64,000 bases of DNA from NCBI RefSeq assembly GCF_988243305.1, contig NZ_OZ547136.1; one strand, given 5' to 3'. Below, one piece after another: positions 8,468-52,680 of this stretch. The translations under genes were made by a program, and so were the position numbers. Numbering within the stretch: the stretch's first letter is position 1; every line of letters begins with the position of its first letter. A model generated the notes under the pieces. It ran no database searches. It was not told the DNA's origin and saw nothing but the letters and a program-made list of their open reading frames with translations.

Positions 8468-8543
8468 TCCTCTGTAGTTCAGTCGGTAGAACGGCGGACT
8501 GTTAATCCGTATGTCACTGGTTCGAGTCCAGTCAGAGGAGCCA
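8468..8543 (+). tRNA. asnT: tRNA-Asn (anticodon GTT); insertion site of the HPI
   Basis: 76-nt TCCTCTGTAGTTCAGTCGGTAGAACGGCGGACTGTTAATCC...GGAGCCA; identical to three further copies in this window. Confidence 0.95.
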
Positions 8544-8923
8544 ATTTTCTGTTTTCTTGCATCCTTGCGAATCTTTATCTGATGTTGATTCAACAGGTTA
8601 GTGTGAAAACTCTTCTCGGTGCATTTTGATTTTACCCTACGCATCGGGAAAAATTGGTGGTCAAATCTGGGGTCAGGTTAGTTCGATAATGGAGTGACCC
8701 CCATATATCCCTTACCGACGCAAAAATCCGCACCCTCAAGCCTTCTGATAAACCCTTTAAAGTCTCCGATTCTCACGGTCTGTATCTGCGGGTCAAGCCG
8801 GGTGGCTCCCGCCACTGGTATCTCAAATACCGTATTAGCGGTAAAGAATCCCGCATTGCGCTGGGTGCCTATCCAGCCATCTCCCTGTCTGATGCGCGAC
8901 AGCAACGTGAAGGTATCCGTAAA

Positions 8924-9967
8924 ATGCTGGCGCTGAATATCAACCCGGTACAGCAGCGGGCTGCTGTACGTGGCTCACGAACACCGGAGAAAGTTTTTAA
9001 AAACGTGGCGCTGGCGTGGCATAAAAGTAACAGGAAATGGTCGCAGAACACCGCCGACCGTCTGCTTGCCAGCCTGAACAATCACATCTTTCCGGTCATC
9101 GGGAACCTACCTGTATCAGAACTTAAACCCCGTCATTTCATTGACCTGCAGAAAGGGATCGAGGAAAAAGGTCTGCTGGAGGTTGCGTCCCGCACACGGC
9201 AGCACCTGAGTAACATAATACGCCATGCGGTCCATCAGGAGTTAATCGATACGAACCCTGCAGCAAACCTTGGCGGCGTGACCACACCTCCTGTCAGACG
9301 GCACTATCCTGCCCTGCCGCTGGAGCGGCTGCCTGAACTGCTTGAACGTATTGGGGCATATCATCAGGGCCGTGAACTGACCCGGCATGCCGTTCTGCTG
9401 ATGCTGCATGTGTTCATTCGCTCCAGTGAACTGCGTTTCGCCCGCTGGTCAGAGATTGATTTCACAAACCGAGTCTGGACGATACCCGCGACGCGAGAAC
9501 CCATTATTGGCGTGCATTATTCCGGCCGCGGGGCAAAAATGCGAATGCCGCATATCGTCCCCCTCTCAGAACAGTCCATCGCCATTCTGAAACAGATTAA
9601 GGATATCACCGGTAATAATGAACTGATCTTCCCCGGCGACCATAACCCGTATAAGCCAATGTGTGAAAACACGGTCAATAAGGCACTGCGGGTGATGGGT
9701 TACGACACGAAAAAGGATATCTGCGGTCACGGCTTCCGGGCAATGGCATGCAGTGCGCTGATGGAATCGGGTTTATGGGCAAAGGACGCAGTAGAACGCC
9801 AGATGAGTCATCAGGAGCGCAATACCGTGCGCATGGCTTATATTCATAAGGCAGAGCACCTGGAAGCCCGCAAAGCGATGATGCAGTGGTGGTCGGATTA
9901 TCTGGAAGCATGCCGAGAATCTTATGCACCGCCTTATACAATTGGTAAAAATAAGTTTATCCCATAG
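8924..9967 (+). CDS. int: P4-like tyrosine integrase of the HPI, possibly start-defective
   Basis: ATG-initiated ORF of 347 aa; the same frame continues upstream to 8690 encoding an integrase N-terminal arm domain (SLTDAKIRTLKPSDKPF...GSRHWYLKYRISGKESRIALGAYP) but with ATA where the start would be expected. Confidence 0.75.
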   Translation: MLALNINPVQQRAAVRGSRTPEKVFKNVALAWHKSNRKWSQNTADRLLASLNNHIFPVIGNLPVSELKPRHFIDLQKGIEEKGLLEVASRTRQHLSNIIRHAVHQELIDTNPAANLGGVTTPPVRRHYPALPLERLPELLERIGAYHQGRELTRHAVLLMLHVFIRSSELRFARWSEIDFTNRVWTIPATREPIIGVHYSGRGAKMRMPHIVPLSEQSIAILKQIKDITGNNELIFPGDHNPYKPMCENTVNKALRVMGYDTKKDICGHGFRAMACSALMESGLWAKDAVERQMSHQERNTVRMAYIHKAEHLEARKAMMQWWSDYLEACRESYAPPYTIGKNKFIP

Positions 9968-9999
9968 TATACTAACGAATCCCACACTCTGGCAAATTA

Positions 10000-10030
10000 C
10001 CACCACCTCCACAGGAGGTGGTTCTATATA
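10000..10030. terminator. hairpin between convergent int and ybtS
   Basis: Inverted repeat ccaccacctcc aca ggaggtggt in the int-ybtS intergenic region. Confidence 0.4.
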
Positions 10031-10160
10031 GACTTTTATCAACTTCATGACGAAAAACACCTATTTTATCCCAAAAGAAGACAATAGAGTCACAGAGGAA
10101 TCAAAGAGCGACTCAATTGTCTTTGGACAGTCTGGTTGTGAGGTTAGAAAACAGTTACTC

Positions 10161-11465
10161 CTACACCATTAAATAGGGCGCAATGCTCGCTAATTTCTCC
10201 CGGGTTTCTGTCAGTTCGCGTTCCGGCGTAGATTGCGCGATGATTCCCGCCCCCGCCTGTATCCAGCAGCGCTGGCTATCCTGAAATACGGAACGCAGAA
10301 CTAGCGCCGCATCAAAGCGCGTATCGTCCAGCAGCAGGATTGCGCCGGAATAAAGCTCTCGCGGCGTCTTCTCAATTTGCATAATCGCGTTCAGAGCAGC
10401 ATTTTTAGGGATACCTGAGGCGGTAATCGACGGAAACAGCACGGTAAACGCATCCCAGGCATCCTTGTTTTCCGCAAGCTGACCGCTCACGCCAGACCCC
10501 AGATGCTGAACGCTGCCGCGCTGGCGAACCGACATTAAATCTTCAACCACCACGCTGCCCGGCTGGCAAACAGCCTCCAGTTCAGCAATAGCTTCTTTGA
10601 CAGAAAGGATATGCTCAAGCACCTCTTTACTGTCGTGCAGCAGTTCTGCCTCTTTCGCCTTATTATGCTCCGGGTTTCCCATGCGATCGCGGGTGCCCGC
10701 AAGCGGTTCAGTGACCACTTTATTGCCCGTCACTGACATCACCAGTTCCGGGCTAAAGCCCAGCGCTTCGCGTCCTTCCTGACGGAACATAAACGAGCGC
10801 ACAGGCGTGTTTGCCTGCCGCCCGTATAACAGCGTGGCGGGCATATCAATCCGCGATGGCAGGGGAATGGCGCGCGAGACAATCACTTTGACATACTCGC
10901 CACGGCGGATCTCCGCAACGGCGCGCGCAACCTGTTGTTTATATGCCTCACCATTGAGGGCGGTATCCACCGCCAGTGGTGCGTTCTGCGTCGTTGTACC
11001 GGCCTCTTTTACCCACTCGCACAAACGTCGGCACCCGTCGGCGGAGTCCGCATAAACGGTGACATTTCCCTTTTCAAAAATAAGTTCTTCACGGGGAACG
11101 GTTAACGTCAGCAGCGGCCACTCCCCGGCGTTAAAGGCAATCCCCCGCGCATGCGCCGCAAAGTTGAACCCAACCTGTCCATATACCCGACGTCCTTTCA
11201 CCTGAGGATGCGCCATAAAACGACGCGCGCAGTCGGCAATGGAATCCACCGCCCATTTTTGCTCCCCGGCATCATCAATAAATGTCGCCTGCGTTCCGTC
11301 GGCATTAATGTGCAGCCGTGCCTGGCACCCTTTGCCTAAATACCAACAGGGTTGACGCTCATAGACATAACACTCTTCTTCTGCGAACTGGCGTAAAACG
11401 CCAGAAATCGTCGGTAGCCATTGTTCCTCTGGTAATGCCAGATGTAGAAATTCACTGATTTTCAT
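10161..11465 (-). CDS. ybtS: salicylate synthase (chorismate-utilising)
   Basis: 434-aa ORF matching recalled YbtS/Irp9; first HPI gene after int in the canonical order. Confidence 0.9.
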   Translation of the reverse strand: MKISEFLHLALPEEQWLPTISGVLRQFAEEECYVYERQPCWYLGKGCQARLHINADGTQATFIDDAGEQKWAVDSIADCARRFMAHPQVKGRRVYGQVGFNFAAHARGIAFNAGEWPLLTLTVPREELIFEKGNVTVYADSADGCRRLCEWVKEAGTTTQNAPLAVDTALNGEAYKQQVARAVAEIRRGEYVKVIVSRAIPLPSRIDMPATLLYGRQANTPVRSFMFRQEGREALGFSPELVMSVTGNKVVTEPLAGTRDRMGNPEHNKAKEAELLHDSKEVLEHILSVKEAIAELEAVCQPGSVVVEDLMSVRQRGSVQHLGSGVSGQLAENKDAWDAFTVLFPSITASGIPKNAALNAIMQIEKTPRELYSGAILLLDDTRFDAALVLRSVFQDSQRCWIQAGAGIIAQSTPERELTETREKLASIAPYLMV

Positions 11466-11492
11466 CCCTTACCTCTCTGTGTTATTCCCGGA

Positions 11493-12773
11493 TCAATCAA
11501 TTGTGCTTGTCATCAGTTCTCTTGCCGAATGCAGCCGGATATAAGCAACCCACGCCGCCAGCAACGTGAATGCCCCGGCAAACAGGAAGCAGGCCGCATA
11601 GCCAAAATGTTGAGCAACAACGCCACCGATAACGCCTGCCAGAATGGCGATTGCCGCGTCAGTACATTGAAAGAGGGTGAAGTCGACACCGGCCTGCAAA
11701 GGCGATGAAAGCGACATCAGCGTGGCGTAAAGACAGACCAGCGCGCAGGCCAGCGAAATGGACTGGACAATGACCAGACACTGGAGAATCTGCAGCAGCA
11801 GATGACCCGGCGCCATCATGAGCGTCATCACCACCGCCAGCAGCGCGATCCCCTGGACGCCATAAGCCGTCAACAGCGCTCTGCCGGGTGAGGTGTATTT
11901 CATCAGCAATCCGCCGGCCAGCGTTCCTGCTATGCCCGCTGCAATATTGCCGCCGCTGAACAGCGCGCCCAATGCGGACATGCTCAACCCATGATCCAAC
12001 AACAGCGGTGCCAGAAGAGGCAGCACAAACCGCATGCCTGAATTCAGCATCAATACCAGCAGTAAGCCCAGGCACGCCTGCTTCCTCCTTAGCGCATAAC
12101 CTAACGCCGGAACATGCGGGATAGTCGCTGTTCGCGTCGGCTCCGTAATGCGCCACAGCGGGAGTGACAGCGCCATAATCAGCACCGCCATCATCAGCAT
12201 GGCGACAGGCCAGCCGGATGCCGCCGACAGCATCAGGAACACCCCGCCGCCGCACATCATTCCCAGATAGCTGCCGCCGACCTGCACGCTGTTTCCCCAG
12301 CCGTAACCCGTGCGGGTCAGTTGATCGACACAAAAGCCGTCGCTGGCGATATCAATGGTGGAGGCGACCGTGCCTGCCACCATAAACAGAACAAATAACG
12401 CGACGATTTGCGTATCGGGGAATCCCCCTTCTCGCCCAAACCAGCCAATCGCTGCGGCAATAGTCAGGATCGCCGCTAGCGCGACCTGACCACGCAGGAT
12501 TAACATGCGGGAACGGCGTTCCTGGCTACCGGGCGGAAGCCGCCAGCGCTCGATCCACGGCGCCCAAATAAACTTCAGCGCCCAGGGCAGCATAAACAGG
12601 GTTGTCGCACCGGCAAGCGCCAGCGAACCGCCAGCAGCGCGCACCAGCGCGGGTAAGGACTGCATAGACAGCGCCGATACCAGACTCTGCGTCACATAGA
12701 CGCCGGCAATAGCAAAAATCACCCGCCCGGTCGTCAACGTCAGCGGTTTCACATTCGACTGAACATCACTCAT
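11493..12773 (-). CDS. ybtX: MFS-type inner-membrane protein of the yersiniabactin system
   Basis: Polytopic membrane ORF; start set at MSDVQSN (426 aa), overlapping the ybtQ stop; the ORF track extends to 12896. Confidence 0.85.
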   Translation of the reverse strand: MSDVQSNVKPLTLTTGRVIFAIAGVYVTQSLVSALSMQSLPALVRAAGGSLALAGATTLFMLPWALKFIWAPWIERWRLPPGSQERRSRMLILRGQVALAAILTIAAAIGWFGREGGFPDTQIVALFVLFMVAGTVASTIDIASDGFCVDQLTRTGYGWGNSVQVGGSYLGMMCGGGVFLMLSAASGWPVAMLMMAVLIMALSLPLWRITEPTRTATIPHVPALGYALRRKQACLGLLLVLMLNSGMRFVLPLLAPLLLDHGLSMSALGALFSGGNIAAGIAGTLAGGLLMKYTSPGRALLTAYGVQGIALLAVVMTLMMAPGHLLLQILQCLVIVQSISLACALVCLYATLMSLSSPLQAGVDFTLFQCTDAAIAILAGVIGGVVAQHFGYAACFLFAGAFTLLAAWVAYIRLHSARELMTSTID

Positions 12774-14568
12774 GCACCCACTCTCCAGACGCGGAACCCC
12801 CGTCGTCGCGCCACACGCGCGCGGCCATTTGCGCCTGCCACAGCGCCTGATAACGTCCATGATGTGAGAGCAATTGCGCATGAGTACCCTGCTCAACCAC
12901 CTGTCCCTCTTCCATCACCAGAATGTTTCCGGCCCCGGCGATGGTGGATAAACGGTGAGCGATGATAATCACCGTCCGGTTGTGAACCAGGTTATCGATC
13001 GCTTTTTGCACCGCCAGCTCGCTTTCAATATCCAGCGCGGCAGTCGGTTCATCGAGAATGACGACCGGCGCGTTTTTCAATAACGCTCTGGCAATGGAAA
13101 TCCGCTGGCGCTCGCCGCCCGATAGCTGGCCGCCCATCTCTCCCATTGGCGTCAGCCAGCCTTGCGGAAGACGGGAAATAAACTCAAGGCACTGCGCCGC
13201 GCGGGCGGCCTCTTCTACCTCCTGCCGCGTCGCCTGTGGGCGCGCGATACGGATATTCGCCAGCAGCGTGTCATCAAACAGCCAGACATCCTGGAAAACA
13301 ACAGAAATCAGGCTATTGAGCTGTTCCGGCGTCAGGCGGCGAATATCGACGCCGCCAATAGAAATCTGCCCTTGCTGCGGATCGGCATAGCGCATTAACA
13401 GTTTGGTGACGGTAGTTTTGCCTGCGCCGGAGGCACCCACCAGCGCGCTCATACTGGCTGCCGGGAACGTCAAAGAAACATGATTAAGCGCGTGGCCGTC
13501 GCCTTCTTCGTAGCGATAGCTGACGTTGTCAAAGCGGATATCGTAACGTTCCGGCATCTCGCTTTGCTCTGCGACGGGAAGCGGTGCTATCGCCATAAAC
13601 TGCTCAATCCGTTGCAGGGCGCTGGCGATCAGTTCCACAACCGAGGTGTAGCTGATAAACATCGCCATCGGTTCTGCGAAGCGCATAATCATCGCGACGG
13701 CGGCAATCAAAAAGGCGAGGTTCAGAGTGCCCGTCACTACCCAGACGATCCCGGATAACACCACCACCTGTAGGCCCAACTCCACGACGCTGGCGATCAG
13801 CATCGTCGCGCCAGCGCCCTGACGGTGAGTGCGGGTCTGTAAGTTTTCCAGCGCATTGAAATGCGCCAGCAGCGCCCGGCTTTTATCGGCATCGCTGCCG
13901 CAGGTGCGCAATACCATCATCCCCTGAGCAAATTCAACGATATCGCCGCTCAGACGCTGGTGCGCTTCCCCCAGCGTCTGCATTTGTCGCCGCATCGCCG
14001 GGCGGCGCCAGTAATAAAACGGCACCAGCAGAGGGAAGATCAGCAACATCACCAGCCCCAGCCGCCAGTCTATCCACAATGTCGCCAGCGACGCCGTCAG
14101 CGGCGTGACAATGGTGAGCAGCAAAATATTGGCTATCGCAATAACATAATTGAGGTTTTCATCCACGCTGCCCAGCAGCAAGGCGTTCATTTCACCCGCC
14201 CTGCCGCGCTGGAGCTTCTCCAGCGGCACGCGGCGTAACTGCTCGCCAAGTCGCAGGCGCAACTCATGGGTAGCCTGCGCCAGATGACCACGGTATTCAA
14301 AGCCCAGGCCATACCAGCGTAGCACCAGCGTCACAATTGCGGCGACGCTGAAGGCCATAGCCCAGTTAAGAAGTTGCGGCGCGTCTCCCCGTAACAGCGC
14401 ATCAATGATCGGATAAAGACAGGCAAAGGCGATCCCCTGCATGAATGCCGCCAGCAACAGCGCCAGCATACTGCGTCGCAGCATCCTGGCCTGACTGCCA
14501 ACGCTGGAGATAAGCTGGCGCCAGATGACGCGCCAGGCCAGGTTATCCGCAGGATTATTGTCTTTCAT
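12766..14568 (-). CDS. ybtQ: ABC transporter, fused permease/ATPase, yersiniabactin iron import
   Basis: Walker A GASGAGKTT and signature LSGGERQR; start set at MKDNN (600 aa) with upstream GGTGG; overlaps ybtP stop. Confidence 0.88.
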   Translation of the reverse strand: MKDNNPADNLAWRVIWRQLISSVGSQARMLRRSMLALLLAAFMQGIAFACLYPIIDALLRGDAPQLLNWAMAFSVAAIVTLVLRWYGLGFEYRGHLAQATHELRLRLGEQLRRVPLEKLQRGRAGEMNALLLGSVDENLNYVIAIANILLLTIVTPLTASLATLWIDWRLGLVMLLIFPLLVPFYYWRRPAMRRQMQTLGEAHQRLSGDIVEFAQGMMVLRTCGSDADKSRALLAHFNALENLQTRTHRQGAGATMLIASVVELGLQVVVLSGIVWVVTGTLNLAFLIAAVAMIMRFAEPMAMFISYTSVVELIASALQRIEQFMAIAPLPVAEQSEMPERYDIRFDNVSYRYEEGDGHALNHVSLTFPAASMSALVGASGAGKTTVTKLLMRYADPQQGQISIGGVDIRRLTPEQLNSLISVVFQDVWLFDDTLLANIRIARPQATRQEVEEAARAAQCLEFISRLPQGWLTPMGEMGGQLSGGERQRISIARALLKNAPVVILDEPTAALDIESELAVQKAIDNLVHNRTVIIIAHRLSTIAGAGNILVMEEGQVVEQGTHAQLLSHHGRYQALWQAQMAARVWRDDGGSASGEWVHE

Positions 14569-16357
14569 TTTCCACCACCTCTTCCTGTGTTCCACCCGGC
14601 ACCCAATGCTGCGCCTGCTGATAGTGTTGCCAGAGCCGTTGATACAGGCCGCCCTGCGCCAACAGTTGCGTATGGTTCCCCATTTCCCTGAGCTGTCCGT
14701 CGGAAAACAGCAATATCACATCGGCCTGAGTCACCATTGAGAGACGATGCGCGACCATGATGACCGTCCGGCCACGCATGGCCGCCGCGAGCGCCTTGAT
14801 AAGCGCCGCTTCGTTTTCCGGGTCAGCAAACGCCGTCGCCTCATCGAGCACCAGGATGGGGCGATCCTGCAAAAGCGCCCGGGCGATAGTAATGCGCTGC
14901 CGCTGGCCGCCGGAGAGAAATACCCCACGTTCCCCGACTCGAGTGTTGTAACCTTCTGGCAGAGCGCTAATAAAATCATGGGCCTGCGCCACTCTGGCCG
15001 CCGCTATAACCGCCTCCAGCGGCGTATCCGGCGCGCCCAGACGAATGTTATTGGCTATCGTGTCGGCAAAAAGGAAGTTGTCCTGAAACACAAACGAGAG
15101 TTGCTTCATCAGGGTGTCCGTCTGCATATCACGCAGATCCACGCCGCCAATACGGATATGGCCTTTGTCCGGGTCGGCGTAACGCAGCAGCAAGCGCGCC
15201 ACGGTGCTTTTTCCGGCGCCGCTTGGCCCGACCAGCGCCACAATTTGCCCGGCAGGCACATGAAAGCTCACCTCCTGCAACGCGGCGCCAGTACGCGCTT
15301 GCGGATAATGAAAGCTCACCTGCTCAAAGGTAATGCTCGCCTCTTGCGGCTGCTGGTCAGACTGCGGCAGCGATAACTCCGGCATCGCGAGAACCTGATA
15401 AATACGCTGAATGCTTAAACGCGTTTGCGCGACCAGGTTATTGAGCATCATCATTGGCATTACGGCTTCGGCCATTCCGCTGCCCAGCAGTAAAACGGCC
15501 ACCCACGCGATAAAATCGAAACTGCCATAGTGCAACAGGCCGTATCCCGACCAGATCAGGACAAACAGGGTCGGGAGAGGATTCAGAATCGAGAAGGAAA
15601 AACGCGCTGAAAAACCGGCTTTGCGATACCAGGTTTTGAGCACATCGACCCACTCTTCAAGGGCGCGTTGATAGCGCAAAAAACTGGTGCTGCCGCTATC
15701 AAACGTTCTCACCACGGGCATGGCCTGCACGAACTCAATAACCGCCGCGCTAACCTGCTCGCGCGCCTTATGATAACGCTGAGCCATATTTTCCGAACGC
15801 TGGCGGGCGAGCACGAGAACAACCGATCCAAACGCCAGTACCCCCAGCGTCGCGATTGCCAGCCGCCAGTCCAGCCAGAACAAGATAACGATTGTCGCCA
15901 GCGGCATGATGATCGCGCGGGCATAGAGCGGCGTGCTGTCGGCCACAAAAATATGTAACGACTTCACGTCATCCAGCATCACTTTCGCCACTGACCCGCT
16001 GCCCATTTGCTGTAACACGCCAGGCGGAAGCTGCAATGCTTTACGGGCTAACCTGCTGCGCAGAATGTTCTCCAGATGAAAAGCCGCGTAATGAGAGGTG
16101 TTGAACGCCTGTAAGCGCAGAACAAAAGTTAAGACCACGCAGCCGATCACGCCGCCCAGCGGCCAGGCCGGAATAGCGTCAGGCGTCGCGCGAATGTCAC
16201 GCAGGCTCCACGCCAGAAAAAGGAGCGCCCCCAGGCTGGTTAATGCCGCCAGCCCCGCCAGCGCCATAGCTAAAATAACCTTCCTGCGAACCGGTGTAAT
16301 CACCTGCCAGAGAGGAAATCGGGACAGCGATTCAGTATTGGATGATTGAGATGACAT
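14555..16357 (-). CDS. ybtP: ABC transporter, fused permease/ATPase, yersiniabactin iron import
   Basis: 600-aa ORF; Walker A GPSGAGKST and signature LSGGQRQR; N-terminal transmembrane domain. Confidence 0.9.
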   Translation of the reverse strand: MSSQSSNTESLSRFPLWQVITPVRRKVILAMALAGLAALTSLGALLFLAWSLRDIRATPDAIPAWPLGGVIGCVVLTFVLRLQAFNTSHYAAFHLENILRSRLARKALQLPPGVLQQMGSGSVAKVMLDDVKSLHIFVADSTPLYARAIIMPLATIVILFWLDWRLAIATLGVLAFGSVVLVLARQRSENMAQRYHKAREQVSAAVIEFVQAMPVVRTFDSGSTSFLRYQRALEEWVDVLKTWYRKAGFSARFSFSILNPLPTLFVLIWSGYGLLHYGSFDFIAWVAVLLLGSGMAEAVMPMMMLNNLVAQTRLSIQRIYQVLAMPELSLPQSDQQPQEASITFEQVSFHYPQARTGAALQEVSFHVPAGQIVALVGPSGAGKSTVARLLLRYADPDKGHIRIGGVDLRDMQTDTLMKQLSFVFQDNFLFADTIANNIRLGAPDTPLEAVIAAARVAQAHDFISALPEGYNTRVGERGVFLSGGQRQRITIARALLQDRPILVLDEATAFADPENEAALIKALAAAMRGRTVIMVAHRLSMVTQADVILLFSDGQLREMGNHTQLLAQGGLYQRLWQHYQQAQHWVPGGTQEEVVENERQ

Positions 16358-16434
16358 GGGAGTAACTGAATTTCCTGATGAATTTTTACGGACGCCAAAA
16401 ACGACAATTCAGGGTGGCGTTCTGAGAATTAATG

Positions 16435-16456
16435 TGAATAATAACCATTATCAATA
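16435..16456. promoter_or_regulatory. Fur-box-like operator in the divergent ybtP/ybtA promoter region
   Basis: gaataataaccattatcaataa resembles the GATAATGATAATCATTATC Fur consensus. Confidence 0.55.
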
Positions 16457-16523
16457 ACTCATCTACCCCATTCGGTTCTATTTATACCCGCATTGGTCTA
16501 AGCCACAGGGAGATAACCAGGTC

Positions 16524-17483: not shown

Positions 17484-17514
17484 CCGGGGTCGCGCCCCCC
17501 TAAACTCCTCCCTG

Positions 17515-17552
17515 ACAGAGGCCCGGATACCCCATCCGGGCCTCTGTTCTTT
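17515..17552 (+). terminator. rho-independent terminator downstream of ybtA
   Basis: Stem acagaggcccgg / ccgggcctctgt followed by tctttcc. Confidence 0.55.
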
Positions 17553-17565
17553 CCGCCTGTTACCA

Positions 17566-17603: not shown

Positions 17604-17607
17604 TCCA

Positions 17608-43978: not shown

Positions 43979-45295
43979 ATGGACTCCACGCTCATCTCCA
44001 CTCGTCCCGATGAAGGGACGCTTTCGTTAAGTCGCGCCCGACGAGCTGCGTTAGGCAGTTTCGCTGGTGCCGTCGTCGACTGGTATGATTTTTTACTCTA
44101 TGGCATTACCGCCGCACTGGTGTTTAATCGCGAGTTTTTCCCGCAAGTAAGCCCGGCGATGGGAACGCTCGCCGCATTTGCCACCTTTGGTGTCGGCTTC
44201 CTTTTCCGACCGCTCGGCGGTGTCATTTTCGGTCACTTTGGTGACCGACTGGGACGTAAGCGCATGTTAATGCTGACCGTCTGGATGATGGGCATCGCGA
44301 CAGCCTTGATTGGTATTCTTCCTTCATTCTCGACCATTGGGTGGTGGGCACCTATTTTGCTGGTGACACTGCGTGCCATTCAGGGATTTGCCGTCGGCGG
44401 CGAATGGGGAGGCGCAGCGTTGCTTTCCGTTGAAAGTGCGCCGAAAAATAAAAAAGCCTTTTACAGTAGCGGTGTACAAGTTGGCTACGGAGTAGGTTTA
44501 CTGCTTTCAACCGGACTGGTTTCATTGATCAGTATGATGACGACTGACGTACAGTTTTTAAGCTGGGGCTGGCGCATTCCTTTCCTGTTTAGCATCGTAC
44601 TGGTACTGGGAGCATTGTGGGTGCGCAATGGCATGGAGGAGTCCGCGGAATTTGAACAACAGCAACATAATCAAGCGGCCGCGAAAAAACGCATCCCGGT
44701 TATCGAAGCTCTGTTACGACATCCCGGTGCTTTCCTGAAGATTATTGCGCTACGACTGTGCGAGTTGCTGACGATGTACATCGTTACCGCCTTTGCACTT
44801 AATTATTCAACCCAGAATATGGGGTTACCGCGCGAACTTTTCCTTAATATTGGTTTGCTGGTAGGTGGATTAAGCTGCCTGACAATTCCCTGTTTTGCCT
44901 GGCTTGCCGATCGTTTTGGTCGCCGCAGGTTTTATATCACAGGTGCGTTAATCGGAATGTTGAGCGCATTTCCTTTCTTTATGGCGCTTGAAGCACAATC
45001 TATTTTCTGGATAGTTTTCTTCTCCATAATGCTGGCAAACATTGCGCATGACATGGTGGTGTGTGTGCAACAACCGATGTTTACCGAAATGTTTGGTGCC
45101 AGTTATCGCTATAGTGGCGCTGGAGTCGGTTATCAGGTTGCCAGTGTGGTTGGTGGTGGATTTACACCTTTTATTGCCGCTGCACTCATCACTTACTTTG
45201 CCGGGAACTGGCATAGCGTCGCCATTTATTTGCTGGCTGGATGCCTGATTTCCGCAATAACCGCTTTGTTGATGAAAGACAATCAACGCGCTTGA
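43979..45295 (+). CDS. shiA: shikimate:H+ symporter (MFS)
   Basis: 438-aa 12-TM ORF matching recalled ShiA. Confidence 0.9.
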   Translation: MDSTLISTRPDEGTLSLSRARRAALGSFAGAVVDWYDFLLYGITAALVFNREFFPQVSPAMGTLAAFATFGVGFLFRPLGGVIFGHFGDRLGRKRMLMLTVWMMGIATALIGILPSFSTIGWWAPILLVTLRAIQGFAVGGEWGGAALLSVESAPKNKKAFYSSGVQVGYGVGLLLSTGLVSLISMMTTDVQFLSWGWRIPFLFSIVLVLGALWVRNGMEESAEFEQQQHNQAAAKKRIPVIEALLRHPGAFLKIIALRLCELLTMYIVTAFALNYSTQNMGLPRELFLNIGLLVGGLSCLTIPCFAWLADRFGRRRFYITGALIGMLSAFPFFMALEAQSIFWIVFFSIMLANIAHDMVVCVQQPMFTEMFGASYRYSGAGVGYQVASVVGGGFTPFIAAALITYFAGNWHSVAIYLLAGCLISAITALLMKDNQRA

Positions 45296-45396
45296 TAGCC
45301 TGGCGAAGATCATCCGATCTTCGCCTTACACTTTTGTTTCACATTCCTGTGACATACTATCGGATGTGCGGTAATTGTATGGAACAGGAGACACAC

Positions 45397-46851
45397 ATGA
45401 ATAATAAGGGCTCCGGTCTGACCCCAGCTCAGGCACTGGATAAACTCGACGCGCTGTATGAGCAATCTGTAGTTGCTTTACGCAACGCCATTGGCAACTA
45501 TATTACAAGTGGCGAATTACCTGATGAAAACGCCCGCAAACAAGGTCTTTTTGTCTATCCATCACTGACCGTAACTTGGGATGGTAGCACAACCAATCCC
45601 CCTAAAACGCGCGCATTTGGTCGTTTTACTCACGCAGGCAGCTACACCACCACGATTACTCGCCCTACTCTCTTTCGTTCGTATCTCAATGAACAACTTA
45701 CGTTGCTGTATCAGGATTATGGTGCGCATATCTCGGTGCAACCCTCGCAGCATGAAATCCCTTATCCTTATGTCATTGATGGCTCTGAATTGACACTTGA
45801 TCGCTCAATGAGCGCTGGGTTAACTCGCTATTTCCCGACAACAGAACTGGCGCAAATTGGCGATGAAACTGCAGACGGCATTTATCATCCAACTGAATTC
45901 TCCCCGCTATCGCATTTTGATGCGCGCCGCGTCGATTTTTCCCTCGCGCGGTTGCGCCATTATACCGGTACGCCAGTTGAACATTTTCAGCCGTTCGTCT
46001 TGTTTACCAACTACACACGTTATGTGGATGAATTCGTTCGTTGGGGATGCAGCCAGATCCTCGATCCTGATAGTCCCTACATTGCCCTTTCTTGTGCTGG
46101 CGGGAACTGGATCACCGCCGAAACCGAAGCGCCAGAAGAAGCCATTTCCGACCTTGCATGGAAAAAACACCAGATGCCCGCGTGGCATTTAATTACCGCC
46201 GATGGTCAGGGTATTACTCTGGTGAATATTGGCGTGGGACCGTCAAATGCTAAAACCATCTGCGATCATCTGGCAGTACTACGCCCGGATGTCTGGTTGA
46301 TGATTGGTCACTGTGGTGGCTTACGTGAAAGCCAGGCCATTGGCGATTATGTACTTGCACATGCTTATTTACGCGATGATCACGTTCTTGATGCGGTTCT
46401 GCCGCCCGATATTCCTATTCCAAGCATTGCTGAAGTGCAACGTGCGCTTTATGACGCTACCAAGTTAGTCAGCGGCAGGCCCGGTGAGGAAGTCAAACAG
46501 CGGCTGCGTACAGGTACTGTGGTAACCACAGATGACAGGAACTGGGAATTACGTTACTCAGCTTCTGCACTTCGTTTTAACTTAAGCCGGGCCGTGGCAA
46601 TTGATATGGAAAGTGCAACCATTGCCGCGCAAGGATATCGTTTCCGCGTGCCATACGGGACACTACTGTGTGTTTCAGATAAACCGTTGCATGGCGAGAT
46701 TAAACTTCCCGGCCAGGCTAACCGTTTTTATGAAGGCGCTATTTCCGAACACCTGCAAATTGGCATTCGGGCGATCGATTTGCTGCGCGCAGAAGGCGAC
46801 CGACTGCATTCACGTAAATTACGAACCTTTAATGAGCCGCCGTTCCGATAA
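45397..46851 (+). CDS. amn: AMP nucleosidase
   Basis: Start set at MNNKGSGLTPAQ (484 aa) with GGAG upstream, not the longer ORF from 45241. Confidence 0.9.
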   Translation: MNNKGSGLTPAQALDKLDALYEQSVVALRNAIGNYITSGELPDENARKQGLFVYPSLTVTWDGSTTNPPKTRAFGRFTHAGSYTTTITRPTLFRSYLNEQLTLLYQDYGAHISVQPSQHEIPYPYVIDGSELTLDRSMSAGLTRYFPTTELAQIGDETADGIYHPTEFSPLSHFDARRVDFSLARLRHYTGTPVEHFQPFVLFTNYTRYVDEFVRWGCSQILDPDSPYIALSCAGGNWITAETEAPEEAISDLAWKKHQMPAWHLITADGQGITLVNIGVGPSNAKTICDHLAVLRPDVWLMIGHCGGLRESQAIGDYVLAHAYLRDDHVLDAVLPPDIPIPSIAEVQRALYDATKLVSGRPGEEVKQRLRTGTVVTTDDRNWELRYSASALRFNLSRAVAIDMESATIAAQGYRFRVPYGTLLCVSDKPLHGEIKLPGQANRFYEGAISEHLQIGIRAIDLLRAEGDRLHSRKLRTFNEPPFR

Positions 46852-47193
46852 TAAGTTATGAACCTTCTTATCAGAAATAGATGTGAAGGATTAAGTAAGA
46901 CATCTGGCAAATAGCCTGCAATAAACGCGGGCTGTTTGCTTCCTTGGGCAGATGCGAGTTTTATTATCGTCTTAATGATTTCCACATATTAAAAGCAAGT
47001 ATGCTTTCAAAACACAATTATAAAAAATCCCGCCAACAACATTAGTTTTTATAAAATTAAATATAAGATTATGGCTTTAGAATATTTTTATTTCTAATAG
47101 ACGAGATTTTTCCTGTTATGATATAATATGCTGAATTAACACATGTTAACGATTTACCAGTAATGTAAATAAATTTTCGAGGAGATCATTCCA

Positions 47194-47910
47194 GTGGGAC
47201 GTAAATGGGCCAATATTGTTGCTAAAAAAACGGCTAAAGACGGTGCAACGTCTAAAATTTATGCAAAATTCGGTGTAGAAATCTATGCTGCTGCCAAACA
47301 AGGTGAACCCGATCCAGAATTAAACACATCTTTAAAATTCGTTATTGAACGTGCAAAGCAGGCACAAGTTCCAAAGCACGTTATTGATAAAGCAATTGAT
47401 AAAGCCAAAGGCGGTGGAGATGAAACGTTCGTACAGGGACGTTATGAAGGCTTTGGTCCTAATGGCTCAATGATTATTGCTGAGACATTGACTTCAAATG
47501 TTAACCGTACGATTGCTAACGTTCGCACAATTTTCAATAAAAAAGGCGGCAATATCGGAGCGGCAGGTTCTGTCAGCTATATGTTTGACAATACGGGTGT
47601 GATTGTATTTAAAGGAACAGACCCTGACCATATTTTTGAAATTTTGCTTGAAGCTGAAGTTGATGTTCGTGATGTAACTGAAGAAGAAGGTAATATTGTT
47701 ATTTATACTGAACCTACTGACCTTCATAAAGGAATCGCGGCGCTAAAAGCAGCTGGAATCACTGAGTTCTCAACAACAGAATTAGAAATGATTGCTCAAT
47801 CTGAAGTTGAGCTTTCCCCAGAAGATTTAGAAATCTTTGAAGGGCTTGTTGATGCCCTTGAAGATGACGACGATGTACAAAAAGTTTATCATAACGTCGC
47901 AAATCTCTAA
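47194..47910 (+). CDS. yeeN: YebC/PmpR-family transcriptional regulator
   Basis: 238-aa ORF with GTG start; matches recalled YeeN. Confidence 0.85.
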
Positions 47911-47919
47911 TTATATGTT

Positions 47920-47952
47920 AAAGAAATCTGTCTTTATGGCAGATTTCTTTAA
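47920..47952 (+). terminator. rho-independent terminator downstream of yeeN
   Basis: Stem aaagaaatctg / cagatttcttt with 9-nt loop. Confidence 0.5.
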
Positions 47953-48364
47953 TCTCATATAATCCTTATAAAAATATAATGTTTAACTCGTCATATTGCT
48001 TATAAAAAATCCCCGTTCCCAGAGAAATAATATTTATTAAAATGGCAGGTCTTCTTTTTCTGATTACCGAAGACAAAGTGGCAATTACGTATAGTTTCCC
48101 GATAAAGACGCGACAGCTACATCCCGCATAAGGCATTTTTCTCTTTATCTTTGTACGGTACTTCATGGAACAGAATTTTTGACCTTGTGAATCGTGATGT
48201 CTGTTGGGGAGGAGCAATTTGCTCACTGAAGCGTGAGACTCGATTAAGCGCACGAAACACAGAAATCAAAAAACCCGGCCACTTTTTTACAAACTGACCG
48301 GGTAAAAATAATTTTTATTTTTTAACTGCCTTGAGACTCATAGAGATGTCTCAAAACTAAAATT

Positions 48365-48440
48365 TGGCTCCTCTGACTGGACTCGAACCAGTGACATACG
48401 GATTAACAGTCCGCCGTTCTACCGACTGAACTACAGAGGA
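48365..48440 (-). tRNA. asnW: tRNA-Asn (anticodon GTT)
   Basis: Exact reverse complement of the 76-nt asnT sequence; gene name assigned from recalled K-12 order. Confidence 0.93.
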
Positions 48441-48540
48441 ATCGTGAGAACGAGGCGAATATTAGCGATGCCCACCCACAATGTCAAAGCCTGTTTTTTA
48501 AATTTGAAATCGTTTGCTGAAATAATCTGCATTTTGTTGT

Positions 48541-50028
48541 TTATTCCGACACAACTGGCTTTTTTTCACACTTTTGCGGTTCGGGTCGAGGGTATTTCCA
48601 TAGCCAACGTCCAGTAACCATTCGCCAGTAAAACAGCACGGCCCGCACAGCCCAGTCGGCAAACATTCCCATCCAGACACCAACCACACCCCAGCCAAGC
48701 ATGATGCCCAGCACATAACCGACGACAACCCGGCAACCCCACATGCTCAACATAGAAACCCACATAGCGTAACGGGCGTCACGAGCCCCCTTAAATCCAG
48801 CGGGTAGCACCCATGAGGCGGACCAAATAGGCATAAATAAAGCATTTAGCCAAATCAGAATCACAACGACATGTTTAACCTGTGGATCCTGGGTGTAAAA
48901 CGATGCCATAACCCCGGCAAAGGGAGCCGTTAGCCAGGCGATGGCCGTTAATCCAAGAGTGGACAGCCAGAAGACATGCCGCAACTGAATCTCTGCTTGC
49001 GCTATCTGCCCTACCCCTAACCTTCGGCCTGTAATGATCGTAGAAGCAGAGCCGAGCGCACTTCCGGGTAAGTTGATAAGAGCCGCAATTGAAAACGCGA
49101 TAAAATTTCCGGCAATAACACTGGTCCCCATCCCGGCAACGAACATTTGGGTTAATAACCGACCACTGGTAAATAACACTGATTCGACACTCGCTGGAAT
49201 ACCAATCCCCATGACTTCCCAGATAATGCTAAAATTCAGCGGTTTAAAATAGCTCTTTAACGAAATCCTTAGCGCAGGATTAAAACCAATCGCCAGCACC
49301 CACAAAATTGCAACTGCGCCAATATAACGAGAAATGGTTAAACCCAACCCAGCCCCGACAAATCCCAGTCCCGGCCAGGAGAAAAGGCCGTAAATCAATA
49401 TGCCGCTAATAATAATATTAAGAATATTCAGGCTACCGTTAATCAGTAGCGGTATTTTCGTATTCCCTGCACCACGAAGTGCCCCGCTACCAATCAAAGT
49501 GATGGCAGCTGCTGGATAACTGAGTACCGTCAGCTCCAGATAAGTCAACGCCAGTGCTTTAACTTCTGTCGTGGCATCACCCGCGACGAAATCAATAATT
49601 TGCTCGCCAAAATGATGAATAAGCGTTGCCAACAGTACGGCAAACAACGTCATGATCACCAATGACTGCCGCGTCGCCACCCTCGCTCGTCGTCGATCCC
49701 GCTTACCGAGACTAAATGCCACAACGACAGTAGTACCAAGATCGATAGCAGCAAAAAAAGCCATAATGACCATATTGAAGCTGTCCGCCAATCCCACGCC
49801 GGCCATCGCATCTTTTCCCAGCCAGCTGACCAGAAAAGTGCTCAGAACCCCCATCAACAGGACACAGGCATTCTCCATGAAGATAGGAACAGCAAGCGGG
49901 GTTATCTCGCGCCAGAACAACACTTTGTAGCTCTTGCGTTTAGCGTGCCAGCGAGTGCCGTGAACAACCTGGCGTAAAGCAGAGGAGATATTCAAAGCCG
50001 ACCTTAATTGCAGAAAGTGAAACCACAT
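48541..50028 (-). CDS. yeeO: MATE-family efflux transporter
   Basis: Polytopic membrane ORF; start set at MWFHFLQ (495 aa); the ORF track extends to 50181 (546 aa). Confidence 0.8.
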   Translation of the reverse strand: MWFHFLQLRSALNISSALRQVVHGTRWHAKRKSYKVLFWREITPLAVPIFMENACVLLMGVLSTFLVSWLGKDAMAGVGLADSFNMVIMAFFAAIDLGTTVVVAFSLGKRDRRRARVATRQSLVIMTLFAVLLATLIHHFGEQIIDFVAGDATTEVKALALTYLELTVLSYPAAAITLIGSGALRGAGNTKIPLLINGSLNILNIIISGILIYGLFSWPGLGFVGAGLGLTISRYIGAVAILWVLAIGFNPALRISLKSYFKPLNFSIIWEVMGIGIPASVESVLFTSGRLLTQMFVAGMGTSVIAGNFIAFSIAALINLPGSALGSASTIITGRRLGVGQIAQAEIQLRHVFWLSTLGLTAIAWLTAPFAGVMASFYTQDPQVKHVVVILIWLNALFMPIWSASWVLPAGFKGARDARYAMWVSMLSMWGCRVVVGYVLGIMLGWGVVGVWMGMFADWAVRAVLFYWRMVTGRWLWKYPRPEPQKCEKKPVVSE

Positions 50029-50188
50029 TTCAAATAATGAGGGAGAATCAGCAAAGCTGCAAAGATTTTCGCCAACAAATTGTCTGCAAATGCAACAAAC
50101 TGTTGATAGAAACGGCAAACAGTTGGGGAATTTAAAAATCGGGTTTGACAAAAGATTTTTCGCCGTTAAGATGTGCCTCAACAGCGAT

Positions 50189-50264
50189 TCCTCTGTAGTT
50201 CAGTCGGTAGAACGGCGGACTGTTAATCCGTATGTCACTGGTTCGAGTCCAGTCAGAGGAGCCA
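50189..50264 (+). tRNA. asnU: tRNA-Asn (anticodon GTT)
   Basis: 76-nt sequence identical to asnT, followed by a terminator hairpin. Confidence 0.93.
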
Positions 50265-50273
50265 AATTTATGA

Positions 50274-50300
50274 AAAGCCCGCTTTTATAGCGGGCTTTTT
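50274..50300 (+). terminator. rho-independent terminator after asnU
   Basis: aaagcccgc ttttat agcgggcttttt. Confidence 0.65.
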
Positions 50301-50301
50301 G

Positions 50302-51252
50302 CTATATCTGATAATCAATTTCCTCTTCACTGTTTTCCATCACCTGGCGCTTGATATCCTCAACTGACAGTCCTGCATTACAAAGTTCCAGAAAGCGCCA
50401 GACATAGTTACGCTGAAGTTGTCCTCGCTTGAGTCCCAACCAGACAGTATTAGCATCGAAAAGATGCCGCGTATCCAGGCGGATTAAATTCTTTTCCTCT
50501 TGTTCACCGCTGGATTGTTCGGCAACTAATCCGATCCCAAGCCCAAGAGCAACATAGGTTTTAATGACATCAGAATCCTGCGCACTTAATACAATATCTG
50601 CCAGCAAACCTTTGCGGGCAAATGCGTCATCAATACGTGAGCGCCCCGTAATCCCCTGTCGGTAAGTGATTAACGGCCACTTCGCTATTGATTCCAGCGT
50701 CAATGGTGTAATTTGCGTCAAGGGATGATCGTGTGGAACAAGCAAACTATGGTGCCAACGAAACCACGGGAAGGCGACGAGCTGCGGGTCATTACTCAAA
50801 CGCTCGCTGGCGATACCAATATCAGCTTCGCCATTTTGCAACAACGTCGCAATTTCCTGTGGCGTACCCTGGATTAGCTCCAGCCGAACCTCCGGGAAAA
50901 GTTCGCGAAAAGCTTTAATGACCTCAGGCAAGCTATAACGTGCCTGAGTATGCGTTGTTGCAATAGTGAGAACGCCAGACGTATCGTTGGTAAACAGGTC
51001 TGCAAGCCGACGAACATTACTGGCTTCATTCAGAATACGTTCTGCAATGACCAGTAATGCTTTGCCCGGTTCAGTCATGCCCAGCAGTCGCTTACCTCGT
51101 CGAACAAATATTTCGATGCCAAGTTCATCCTCCAGTTCCCGAATATGACGGCTGACGCCGGACTGTGAGGTAAAAAGCATATTCGCAACCTCTGTCAGGT
51201 TGTAATCCTGACGTGCAGCCTCGCGGATTATCTTTAGTTGTTGGAAATTCAC
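50302..51252 (-). CDS. cbl: LysR-family regulator of sulfonate utilisation (CysB-like)
   Basis: 316-aa ORF with N-terminal LysR HTH; matches recalled Cbl. Confidence 0.88.
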   Translation of the reverse strand: MNFQQLKIIREAARQDYNLTEVANMLFTSQSGVSRHIRELEDELGIEIFVRRGKRLLGMTEPGKALLVIAERILNEASNVRRLADLFTNDTSGVLTIATTHTQARYSLPEVIKAFRELFPEVRLELIQGTPQEIATLLQNGEADIGIASERLSNDPQLVAFPWFRWHHSLLVPHDHPLTQITPLTLESIAKWPLITYRQGITGRSRIDDAFARKGLLADIVLSAQDSDVIKTYVALGLGIGLVAEQSSGEQEEKNLIRLDTRHLFDANTVWLGLKRGQLQRNYVWRFLELCNAGLSVEDIKRQVMENSEEEIDYQI

Positions 51253-51353
51253 GGTAAACTCCGGGCAGTTCAGATTTTCCGTTATTGTTAAAGTCTAATG
51301 CCCGGCATAACAAATAATAAAAACCCGCATCTTATTCCATCCCGATATAACGC

Positions 51354-52271
51354 TTAGCTCACCAATTGCCACTGCCTTTTTTCCATCACTGGAGAACTCA
51401 TCACTGACATTAACAACTCTTTCACTGCCTGTGCCTGTGGTGATAAGTTCGCTCTGGCGGGTAAATTTAATGACAAAGAGAGACTCATGGAAGGTGTGGT
51501 AATGCGTGACATCCACCCGTTTACTGCGCCACATAACGAACGCGCGGCCGATTCGGGTAATACTGCAACGCCCATGCCGCTGGCAATCGCTGCGGTAAGC
51601 GTGGCAATAGACTCAATTTCACCAATGACTTTTGCCGTGAGTCGCCGTAGGGAAAACGCCTCATCAACACGAAGTCTAACAGCGCTGTAATCACTGGGGA
51701 GAAAGAGGTTCATTTGTGCAATAGCATTAACATCAACGCTTTGCCCCGGGCAATCTTGAGTTCCTACCAGGAAAAGATCTTCTTTCAGCAAAGCCTGACT
51801 GGATACCCCAGCCACAGGGGAATGCTCATAAATCACCGCCATATCGAGTTGGTGATTTATCAGTTTTTCGTTAAGCACTGCACCGCTATTTTCATGAAGA
51901 TAGATAACGATCTCCGGGAATTCAGCGCGAACCGCCTGTAATAAGGGCATGGTGATAGATGACGCAGCGGTTCCTGGCGCAAAGCCAATCGAGACTTGCC
52001 CCGATAATGCCTGACCAACGTTATGCACCGCCAGTTGGGCCTGCTCACACTGACGTAAAATGGCCCGCGCATGGGTATAGAGAATTTTTCCGGCGTCTGT
52101 TGGCGTAACGCCCCGTTTTGTGCGAATCAAAAGTTGTTGATTTAACTCACCTTCCAGTGTGGCAACCTGCTGGCTGAGCGCTGGTTGTGCGATATGCAAT
52201 ACTTCAGCAGCCTGAGTCAGGCTACCAATATCTACAATTTTTACGAAGTATTTCAGGCGTCTGAAGTTCAT
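51354..52271 (-). CDS. nac: nitrogen assimilation control protein (LysR family)
   Basis: Start set at MNFRRLKYF (305 aa) rather than the longer ORF to 52301. Confidence 0.88.
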   Translation of the reverse strand: MNFRRLKYFVKIVDIGSLTQAAEVLHIAQPALSQQVATLEGELNQQLLIRTKRGVTPTDAGKILYTHARAILRQCEQAQLAVHNVGQALSGQVSIGFAPGTAASSITMPLLQAVRAEFPEIVIYLHENSGAVLNEKLINHQLDMAVIYEHSPVAGVSSQALLKEDLFLVGTQDCPGQSVDVNAIAQMNLFLPSDYSAVRLRVDEAFSLRRLTAKVIGEIESIATLTAAIASGMGVAVLPESAARSLCGAVNGWMSRITTPSMSLSLSLNLPARANLSPQAQAVKELLMSVMSSPVMEKRQWQLVS

Positions 52272-52596
52272 GTTGCCTCCGGTTTTTGAGAATCGGCCCA
52301 AGTGCCGCCATTACTTACAACCAGACTGCAAGATGCTTGCCAGTTTTATTTTGGCGTTGATGTACAAGCTAACCAACTGTCAAATAAGAGATTATGATAG
52401 ATTCGTCATTGGCTCTTTTCACCAGCAGTCGCGTTCCCCTGCCCTATAAAAGGAGGGTATGCACCACGATGGTTCATTACCAATAAGATTGAAATCTCAT
52501 CACTTTGTTGAAATTGGCAGCAAACAAACAAAAAAATGCATTTCACCCTTTGACATCACCATGCACTGCCATTAATATGCGCCCCGTTCACACGAT

Positions 52597-52672
52597 TCCT
52601 CTGTAGTTCAGTCGGTAGAACGGCGGACTGTTAATCCGTATGTCACTGGTTCGAGTCCAGTCAGAGGAGCCA
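52597..52672 (+). tRNA. asnV: tRNA-Asn (anticodon GTT)
   Basis: 76-nt sequence identical to asnT, followed by a terminator hairpin. Confidence 0.93.
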
Positions 52673-52680
52673 AATTCAAA

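Follow-up and report, generated by a model that had tools for sequence, protein, structure and literature searches.

The 64,000-nt stretch of E. coli DNA analyzed here, which we call the window, holds four identical tRNA-Asn genes, and asnT is the only one that is occupied; it carries the yersiniabactin High-Pathogenicity Island (HPI), with int first and then ybtS to fyuA. Taken as a whole, the region is almost certainly to be read as an E. coli-type HPI at asnT that lacks a terminator after the tRNA gene and has been fixed in place by deletion, and nothing that we found contradicts this reading. This observation is correct but already known, having been described by Schubert 2009, Auvray 2021, and Liu 2026, and it advances no open question. 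Its use is mainly one of bookkeeping, in the comparison of island locations between strains.

Four tRNA-Asn genes and their flanks

ARAGORN located four tRNA-Asn(GTT) genes in the window, each scoring 72.6 bits against Rfam: asnT (8468-8543, + strand), asnW (48365-48440, - strand), asnU (50189-50264, + strand), and asnV (52597-52672, + strand). Alignment showed all 76 of 76 tRNA positions to be invariant (100% identity), which bears out the sequence identity claimed in the initial annotation, and the invariance reaches 3 nt 5' (GAT) and 1 nt 3' (A) beyond the tRNA; for asnT, asnW, and asnV, upstream similarity reaches ~24 nt 5' of the gene. A search of the window for the 17-bp att core CCAGTCAGAGGAGCCAA with up to three mismatches gave four sites and no more, each within a tRNA-Asn gene, compared with a chance expectation of 0.08. 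The asnT copy, identified by motif search and K-12 comparison, lies at the 3' end of the gene (8528-8544, + strand) and forms attL. A P4-type tyrosine integrase recognizes this 17-bp end, so that every copy is a potential attB for the HPI/ICEEc1/ICEKp/pks family. The Yersinia HPI inserts at any asn tRNA gene according to Buchrieser 1998, as that work is cited in PMC8209727.

Because the four genes are indistinguishable, a site can be named only from its 5' flank (mtfA, yeeO, yeeO/cbl, or nac). The left part of the window follows K-12 MG1655 in the order hchA...zinT-serU-mtfA-asnT, with mtfA and serU upstream of asnT as in K-12, and the right part follows it in the order yeeL-shiA-amn-yeeN-asnW-yeeO-asnU-cbl-nac-asnV-ldtA-cobTSU. 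The region corresponds to the E. coli asn-tRNA cluster at K-12 minutes 44 to 45, with four duplicated genes, each probably served by its own sigma-70 promoter. By BLAST, 42461-56495 aligns to K-12 as a single colinear block (14,037 alignment columns, 97.8%), so there is no insertion at asnW, asnU, or asnV, and the earlier placement of the HPI at asnT alone stands.

We considered whether an inversion or rearrangement of the asnW-asnV segment, as in pks-positive B2 strains, might have led to wrong K-12 names here. What prompted this was JE86-ST05, the genome nearest to the left 48 kb, in which the segment is inverted and an extra island is present. Such inversions do exist, as the yeeN-asn-nac junction that marks them was found in 265 of 5426 complete genomes (about 5%), and in QL57EC the inversion is limited to yeeO. 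However, the single colinear block refutes misassignment, and the K-12-type junctions of asnW, asnU, and asnV are all in the window, by construction of the survey queries. The idea has next to no probability and we rejected it: the arrangement is K-12-like, and the names, which the initial annotation had itself put up for checking, are correct by MG1655 synteny. As asnW is inverted relative to the other copies, the copies are also substrates for inversions, as in other strains.

The 5' flanks are alike in another respect. A promoter scan found a promoter-like site upstream of asnT (8421-8449, + strand; TTGACA, 17-nt spacer, TAATAT), and equivalent sites precede asnW, asnU, and asnV. The 3' flanks, compared by scan and folding, separate asnT from the rest, in agreement with the earlier claim that it is the sole copy without a terminator hairpin. 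An intrinsic terminator hairpin followed by a U-run is predicted after asnU (50272-50300, + strand) and after asnV (52679-52706, + strand). Downstream of asnW (48267-48357, - strand; z = -5.25), there is a hairpin at 48357-48328 and then a terminator at 48303-48267 (stem 48303-48273, T-run 48272-48267). The canonical asnW terminator is thus ~60 to 97 nt 3' of the gene and not immediately adjoining, and the same two structures are present in K-12. Since the consensus terminator scan caught just the asnV terminator among these three, we relied on folding for those of asnU and asnW. No terminator-like site was found by scan on the + strand from 8544 to int, and the asnT 3' flank is not more stably folded than shuffled sequence (z = -1.17), whereas the empty asnT of K-12 has a strong terminator downstream (z = -5.27). 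Occupancy can be told by sequence alone: an empty site has a terminator within ~100 nt, and an occupied one has a 161-nt leader and then int.

The island and its deleted right end

The yersiniabactin locus is complete. All eleven genes are named in the PGAP annotation of JE86-ST05, a genome just 15 substitutions away from window positions 1-48440, and open reading frame (ORF) sizes and order are as expected. The ybtS-ybtX-ybtQ-ybtP genes (10161-16357, - strand) encode salicylate synthase and yersiniabactin transporters, with a match of 682 bits to the NCBIfam salicylate synthase model. The ybtA, irp2, irp1, ybtU, ybtT, ybtE, and fyuA genes (16524-38990, + strand) encode the regulator, the NRPS/PKS, tailoring enzymes, and the receptor, as supported by the ORFs, the JE86-ST05 annotation, and NCBIfam. 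Matches to the salicylate synthase, thiazolinyl imide reductase, and TonB-dependent siderophore receptor models are above their curated cut-offs; the best NCBIfam match of YbtE is to (2,3-dihydroxybenzoyl)adenylate synthase at 590.7 bits, below the cut-off of 723.55. Together with this locus, the window shows the other features that define the HPI, namely, an island inserted into the 3' end of asnT, a P4-type integrase immediately beyond it in the same orientation, and loss of the right 17-bp repeat (on the fyuA side) with adjacent backbone.

Homology to K-12 ends at 8547 by BLAST and starts again at 39997; at asnT, identity really ends at 8544, and the BLAST match is prolonged to 8547. Beyond fyuA lies an AT-rich, truncated right island end (38991-40003, + strand), which is homologous to the ICE-type HPI of ECKH-505 (L009 2259-5579; 99.8% and 98.5% identity, up to 40003) and stops inside its hypothetical ORF WP_000039790. 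BLAST, reading of the sequence, and the ECKH-505 comparison place the deletion junction at 39997-40003 (+ strand), where island homology runs out and yeeJ homology sets in, with an overlap of 7 bp (GTTACGC). A remnant of yeeJ, which encodes an inverse autotransporter adhesin, follows (39997-42451, + strand) and has extra internal deletions compared with K-12, as seen from K-12 BLAST and the JE86-ST05 annotation.

The junction lacks attR and the native asnT terminator of the K-12 type, and yeeJ has lost its first ~220 bp; the K-12 segment at L003 8630-9213 is absent from the window by BLAST. A search of the window for attR or a degenerate tRNA-Asn 3' fragment (17-mer, up to three mismatches) returned just the four genes. 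K-12 BLAST and reading of 38960-40020 likewise ruled out that the native asnT flank was merely displaced to the right end of the island. Island DNA had been said to replace the native sequence downstream of asnT, and this proved true more literally than was probably intended: the flank was deleted, not displaced. Also, homology to the integrative and conjugative element (ICE) form ends at 40003, and the T4SS genes of ECKH-505 have no counterpart in the window (a virB-type T4SS and a mobB/oriT module would be expected 3' of fyuA); of the two repeats of an ICE, attL alone is in the window.

These features suggest the following history. The common E. coli-type HPI integrated at asnT in this strain, with the tRNA rebuilt from island DNA and int placed 161 bp 3' of it, in the same orientation and with no intervening terminator. 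Upon integration, the tRNA terminator ordinarily comes to lie beyond the opposite end of the element, and int would then be read through from the asn promoter. Later, a single illegitimate deletion at the 7-bp microhomology probably removed the remaining ancestral ICE, attR, the asnT terminator, and the 5' end of yeeJ. As attR and the right end were deleted, the island is fixed at asnT and spreads vertically or by homologous recombination of its flanks, and in no other way. The asnW, asnU, and asnV sites have kept their native terminators and, being empty, are open to incoming elements of the HPI/pks/ICE family.

Integrase expression and island mobility

The HPI integrase gene int (8705-9967, + strand) is an open frame of 420 codons for a P4-type tyrosine recombinase with the Pfam domains Arm-DNA-bind_3, Phage_int_M, and Phage_integrase, and the JE86-ST05 annotation calls it integrase. 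Its start codon is ATA and not ATG, an allele common to at least 847 complete genomes, and on sequence grounds little or no integrase may be produced from any transcript of it. Between asnT and int lies a leader of island origin (8544-8704, + strand; 161 nt) with three weak minimum free energy (MFE) stem-loops, and scans predicted neither an intrinsic terminator nor a sigma-70-like promoter in it. By sequence comparison, the ICE-type HPI and the pks island have the same 161-bp spacing, and int is in the same orientation as the tRNA gene. This is the layout of a tRNA-promoter-driven integrase, as described by Liu 2026 for ICEKp1, in which int is 161 bp 3' of tRNA-asn, the terminator is displaced, and an asn-int co-transcript with attenuating stem-loops is made (PMC13023037). 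From the sequence and the ICEKp1 and ICEEc1 experiments, we infer that transcripts starting at the asnT promoter read through into int. The MFE fold of the leader is no more stable than that of shuffled sequence (z = -0.46), so the attenuator stem-loops reported for ICEKp1 have no independent support here. In addition, the 3' end of the island, which would bear a second promoter for use after excision, is deleted, so that the mechanism of Liu et al. 2026 (state-dependent promoter switching) can apply in its integrated-state half only.

Loss of the terminator after asnT might alternatively be a functionally meaningless by-product of the crossover, with int expressed from a promoter of its own or never. 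The leader without significant structure fits this idea, as does the ATA start, a hint that this lineage can do without int expression or is under selection against it, and in an immobile island int has no remaining role. Against it, no sigma-70-like promoter is predicted from asnT to int, and the HPI, the ICE-type HPI, and the pks island have all kept the 161-bp layout. Moreover, the ICEKp1 and ICEEc1 experiments showed co-transcription from the asn promoter, and re-insertion of the terminator abolished transfer (PMC13023037). We therefore consider a meaningless loss unlikely and favor read-through from asnT. It is a rather doubtful proposal that the change from ATG to ATA was a second, selected "domestication" step after the attR deletion, the simpler alternative being neutral decay of an unused gene. 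If it were true, the terminator-less asnT promoter would still be transcribing a useless integrase gene, possibly antisense into the convergent ybtS operon, and silencing of int translation would spare this cost. HPI lineages with ATA and ATG would then differ in how much integrase protein they make, and perhaps also in ybt expression or in the amount of tRNA from asnT.

It is also important to ask whether the resident HPI is still mobile and able to excise and re-integrate at asnW, asnU, or asnV. The int frame is open, all integrase domains are present, the gene is annotated as intact in near-identical genomes, and other strains have elements of the HPI family at asnV and asnW. However, the window has no second 17-bp repeat even at three mismatches; the right end, attR, and adjacent backbone were deleted at a junction shared by 2055 of 5426 complete genomes; and the ATA start also counts against mobility. 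Schubert 2009 describes the E. coli-type HPI as fixed at asnT and as having lost its right direct repeat together with neighboring backbone by deletion (PMC2606025). The asnV copy that we inspected, in ECKH-505, is an ICE-type HPI of the longer form with a virB T4SS, not the truncated form. Mobility of the resident copy is thus very improbable, and an island fixed by deletion remains the preferred reading. Without attR, relocation of this HPI is impossible, and its spread by homologous recombination of flanks has already been published.

Site occupancy across genomes and relation to known elements

We surveyed 5426 complete genomes with junction queries of 801 bp (or 656 bp) at ≥80% coverage; the counts are approximate, because insertion sequence (IS) insertions, assembly differences, and related integrases shift them by tens of genomes. 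The asnT-HPI junction was found in 2353 genomes and the empty asnT in 2675, while the K-12-type junctions of asnW, asnU, and asnV were found in 4980, 5180, and 4664, respectively. Islands at the other copies, which the initial annotation had proposed to look for, do occur: 367 genomes have a pks-type integrase at asnW, and 211 have one of the HPI type at asnV, among which ECKH-505 is the one whose island type was read. Roughly 400 asnT, 250 asnU, and 290 asnV sites fall outside the classes counted. In ECKH-505, the island ends in attR and, after it, the asnV terminator (L009 39191), which is identical in sequence to that of asnV in the window. The description of asnW, asnU, and asnV as unoccupied potential attachment sites thus holds, as they are empty here and occupied in other E. 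coli genomes. They are sites for incoming elements, however, and not for the resident HPI, which, with attR lost and int starting with ATA, is unable to use them.

That unoccupied copies matter when island locations are compared was borne out as well, since identical copies can be named by their 5' flank only and inversions between them exchange 3' flanks. Nearly all typical pks-positive strains are affected. Auvray 2021 found pks at asnW, asnU, or asnV and the asn tRNAs to be 100% identical (PMC8209727); the inversion goes along with pks, and the asn promoter takes the place of the int promoter (PMC8209727).

Among known elements, the E. coli-type HPI (PAI IV536-like) is the closest match to the window island. 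It has the same mtfA-asnT site and the same gene order (int, ybtS-X-Q-P, ybtA, irp2, irp1, ybtU-T-E, fyuA), and its right direct repeat is likewise lost with a deletion into neighboring backbone. Nothing substantive differs; the window copy has the ATA allele of int. ICEEc1 (the ECOR31/ED1a-type HPI-ICE) and ICEKp1 of Klebsiella pneumoniae share the integrase family, the 17-bp target, the 161-bp spacing, and the yersiniabactin module, and in both the terminator no longer adjoins the tRNA gene (PMC13023037). The right end of the window island is 98 to 99% identical to the ICE form up to 40003, but ICE forms keep ~35 kb of conjugation/mobilization genes, attR, and the displaced 3' terminator, all of which are deleted in the window. 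They also sit at asnV (ECKH-505, and ECOR31 according to PMC2606025). The pks (colibactin) island, which is absent from the window, has a related P4-type integrase, a near-identical leader and integrase N terminus, and the same att core and site cluster. Its cargo, however, is the clb genes, both of its direct repeats are kept (PMC8209727), and its usual configuration has the asnW-asnV segment inverted, unlike the window. The prototype is the Yersinia HPI (Y. pestis/Y. pseudotuberculosis), which, compared by description, keeps both 17-bp repeats and is excisable, in contrast to the island in the window.

The four tRNA-Asn genes and the island at asnT

ARAGORN placed five tRNA genes in the window, namely serU and four copies of tRNA-Asn(GTT): asnT (8468-8543, plus strand), asnW (48365-48440, minus strand), asnU (50189-50264, plus strand), and asnV (52597-52672, plus strand). 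The initial annotation described the four as sequence-identical, and Rfam (equal scores) and an alignment of each copy with flanks of 100 nt (upstream) and 200 nt (downstream) both agree: 76/76 tRNA positions were invariant, as were the 5'-adjacent GAT and one A on the 3' side. For asnT, asnW, and asnV, the similarity also covers ~24 nt of upstream sequence, entering the -10 and discriminator region, which makes repeats of ~104 to 112 bp. Each copy is preceded by its own TTGACA/TAATAT-like promoter. The 17-bp att core, CCAGTCAGAGGAGCCAA, lies at the tRNA sequence's 3' end and was confined to these four genes with up to 3 mismatches tolerated (chance expectation, 0.08).

Gene order is that of K-12 MG1655 both to the left (hchA-hprSR-hiuH-msrPQ-zinT-serU-mtfA-asnT) and to the right (yeeL-shiA-amn-yeeN-asnW-yeeO-asnU-cbl-nac-asnV-ldtA-cobTSU), and therefore the K-12-type gene names are right. 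Some local differences from K-12 were also seen. The gene yodB (cytochrome b561), which K-12 carries between zinT and serU, is absent at 6717-6940, with ~770 bp of K-12 sequence lacking a counterpart. A 768-bp insertion relative to K-12 occupies 57293-58060, where the K-12 coordinates overlap by 9 bp on either side (target-site duplication); an IS1 element would fit both its size and its ORF (57308-57811). The K-12 IS5H of the cobU/CP4-44 border is absent, and where K-12 has the CP4-44 cryptic prophage, there is a group II intron (59915-61528) among IS3- and IS30-family remnants, comprising an ltrA reverse transcriptase/maturase ORF (59915-61438) followed by Rfam Intron_gpII (61442-61528, 64.9 bits).

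Homology to K-12 ends at 8547 and restarts at 39997. The block inserted at asnT matches the High-Pathogenicity Island (HPI). It contains a P4-type integrase gene, int (8705-9967, same strand as asnT), with Pfam arm-binding, central, and catalytic domains, and carries ybtS-X-Q-P, ybtA, irp2, irp1, ybtU-T-E, and fyuA, as annotated in strain JE86-ST05, which differs from window positions 1-48440 by 15 substitutions in all. NCBIfam matches were consistent for YbtS, YbtU, and FyuA; the YbtE adenylate-synthase match was sub-threshold. The element shows every defining feature of the E. coli-type HPI that was tested, whereas the T4SS module and attR of the ICE form are both missing. Positions 42461-56495 form one colinear alignment with K-12 (14,037 columns), and there is thus no extra DNA at asnW, asnU, or asnV, leaving asnT as the only occupied site, as originally proposed.

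The right border of the island

In ordinary integration, the native 3' flank of the tRNA ends up beyond the element, at its distal side. This is exemplified by ECKH-505, in which an ICE-type HPI of ~65 kb with a virB T4SS and mobC is inserted at asnV and ends in a 17-bp attR, with the asnV terminator sequence directly after. The variable region of that element (L009, 25176-36564) contains defence genes according to PGAP: a restriction endonuclease, an ABC-three-component system, and a retron Eco8-family effector accompanied by its reverse transcriptase.

In the window, the sequence from fyuA onward is homologous to the ICE form as far as 40003, which falls within an ICE hypothetical ORF, and yeeJ homology to K-12 starts at 39997, a 7-bp overlap (GTTACGC). 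The remaining ICE and attR are missing. Also missing are K-12 positions 8630-9213 (L003), and with them the native terminator of asnT, the promoter of yeeJ, and the initial ~220 bp of that gene. The earlier statement that island DNA replaces the native downstream sequence is accordingly right in that the asnT flank is gone, but this flank was deleted, not displaced. Of 5426 complete E. coli genomes, 2055 matched a 656-bp query across the island/yeeJ junction at ≥80% coverage; only its yeeJ half matched in HPI-negative genomes and only its island half in ICE-type genomes. This junction is the fyuA-border deletion of Schubert et al. 2009 (PMC2606025), who reported it as a unique deletion through which the direct repeat was lost and inferred from it that the HPI is fixed. 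Because attR is absent, excision of the truncated HPI is impossible, and the resident island is immobile.

The deletion also created a chimeric ORF (39682-40393), whose 5' portion derives from the ICE hypothetical gene and whose 3' portion derives from yeeJ; related genomes label it 'inverse autotransporter beta domain-containing protein', with a frameshift. The yeeJ remnant (40319-42451) has more internal deletions relative to K-12 (L003, 9545 to 13239 and 13713 to 13996). The yeeJ of HPI-positive genomes is ~7% diverged from that of HPI-negative genomes, which fits a flank that was transferred together with the island.

Use of the asn sites in other genomes

We compared 801-bp junction queries with 5426 complete genomes, counting those with ≥80% of the query covered, a criterion that makes these counts, like that for the 656-bp query, approximate. 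The empty K-12-type asnT was found in 2675 genomes and mtfA-asnT-int-ybtS in 2353, while K-12-type asnW, asnU, and asnV were found in 4980, 5180, and 4664, respectively. A pks-type integrase followed yeeO-asnW in 367 genomes, an HPI-type integrase followed nac-asnV in 211, and 265 had yeeN-asn-nac, the asnW/asnV inversion. HPI, pks, and the inversion account for all but a few hundred of the sites.

Individual strains illustrate these arrangements. In 25DN and APEC E18055, pks adjoins asnW with an inverted segment. ESBLEC_MG32 (L004, 6001-12429) has, at asnW in the K-12 orientation, a non-pks island that encodes an integrase, RepL, a CoiA-like protein, and H-NS, and a 24-nt tRNA remnant beside yeeN; in JE86-ST05 (L002, 10365-28300), the same island lies between the inverted asnW-asnV segment and ldtA. 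These two configurations are compatible with an inversion between the island attR and asnV. In QL57EC (L008, 5181-7080), the inversion between asnW and asnU affects only yeeO and no island is present, and therefore inverted tRNA copies also recombine where the site has no element that bears an integrase.

Taken together, the counts and single strains indicate that the sites empty in the window are used elsewhere, supporting their description as potential attachment sites, and that inverted identical copies mediate inversions. Auvray et al. 2021 (PMC8209727) likewise located pks at asnW, asnU, or asnV, described the asn genes as 100% identical, and reported that pks acquisition is accompanied by inversion and that the promoter of the integrase is supplanted by the asn tRNA promoter.

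The asnT-int leader and integrase transcription

By folding, asnU is followed from +8 by a terminator (50272-50300) made up of a GC-rich hairpin of 12 bp plus a U-run, and asnV from +7 by a structure of the same kind (52679-52706). Downstream of asnW, a hairpin (48357-48328) precedes a canonical terminator (stem 48303-48273, T-run to 48267) that does not directly adjoin the gene, lying about 60 to 97 nt away. A scan of the interval between asnT and int found no terminator-like site, and folding did not exceed that of shuffled sequence for the asnT 3' flank (z = -1.17) or the whole leader (z = -0.46). The empty K-12 asnT has a strongly structured region including a terminator just 3' of the gene (z = -5.27). 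Comparison of the four flanks thus upholds asnT as the only copy without a downstream terminator. The int gene starts 161 bp 3' of asnT on the same strand, with neither terminator nor promoter in between.

Its start codon (8705-8707) is ATA, whereas int of the ICE-type HPI and of the pks island starts with ATG, the surrounding sequence being nearly the same. The 57-mer that includes ATA has exact matches in 847 complete E. coli genomes; PGAP still calls the ATA-start HPI integrase intact.

Overall, the observation is real and its initial interpretation correct, with two refinements: the flank was lost by deletion and not moved, and the island is immobile. The whole finding is already covered by existing literature. 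In ICEKp1 and ICEEc1, the asn promoter drives a tRNA-Asn-int co-transcript that leader stem-loops attenuate, and putting the terminator back abolishes transfer; ICEKp1 int likewise lies 161 bp from tRNA-asn (Liu et al. 2026, PMC13023037). By analogy, the asn promoter in the window would yield a joint transcript of tRNA-Asn and int, and stem-loops in the int leader may attenuate this transcript. Of the circuit of Liu et al. 2026, only the integrated-state half can exist in the truncated HPI.
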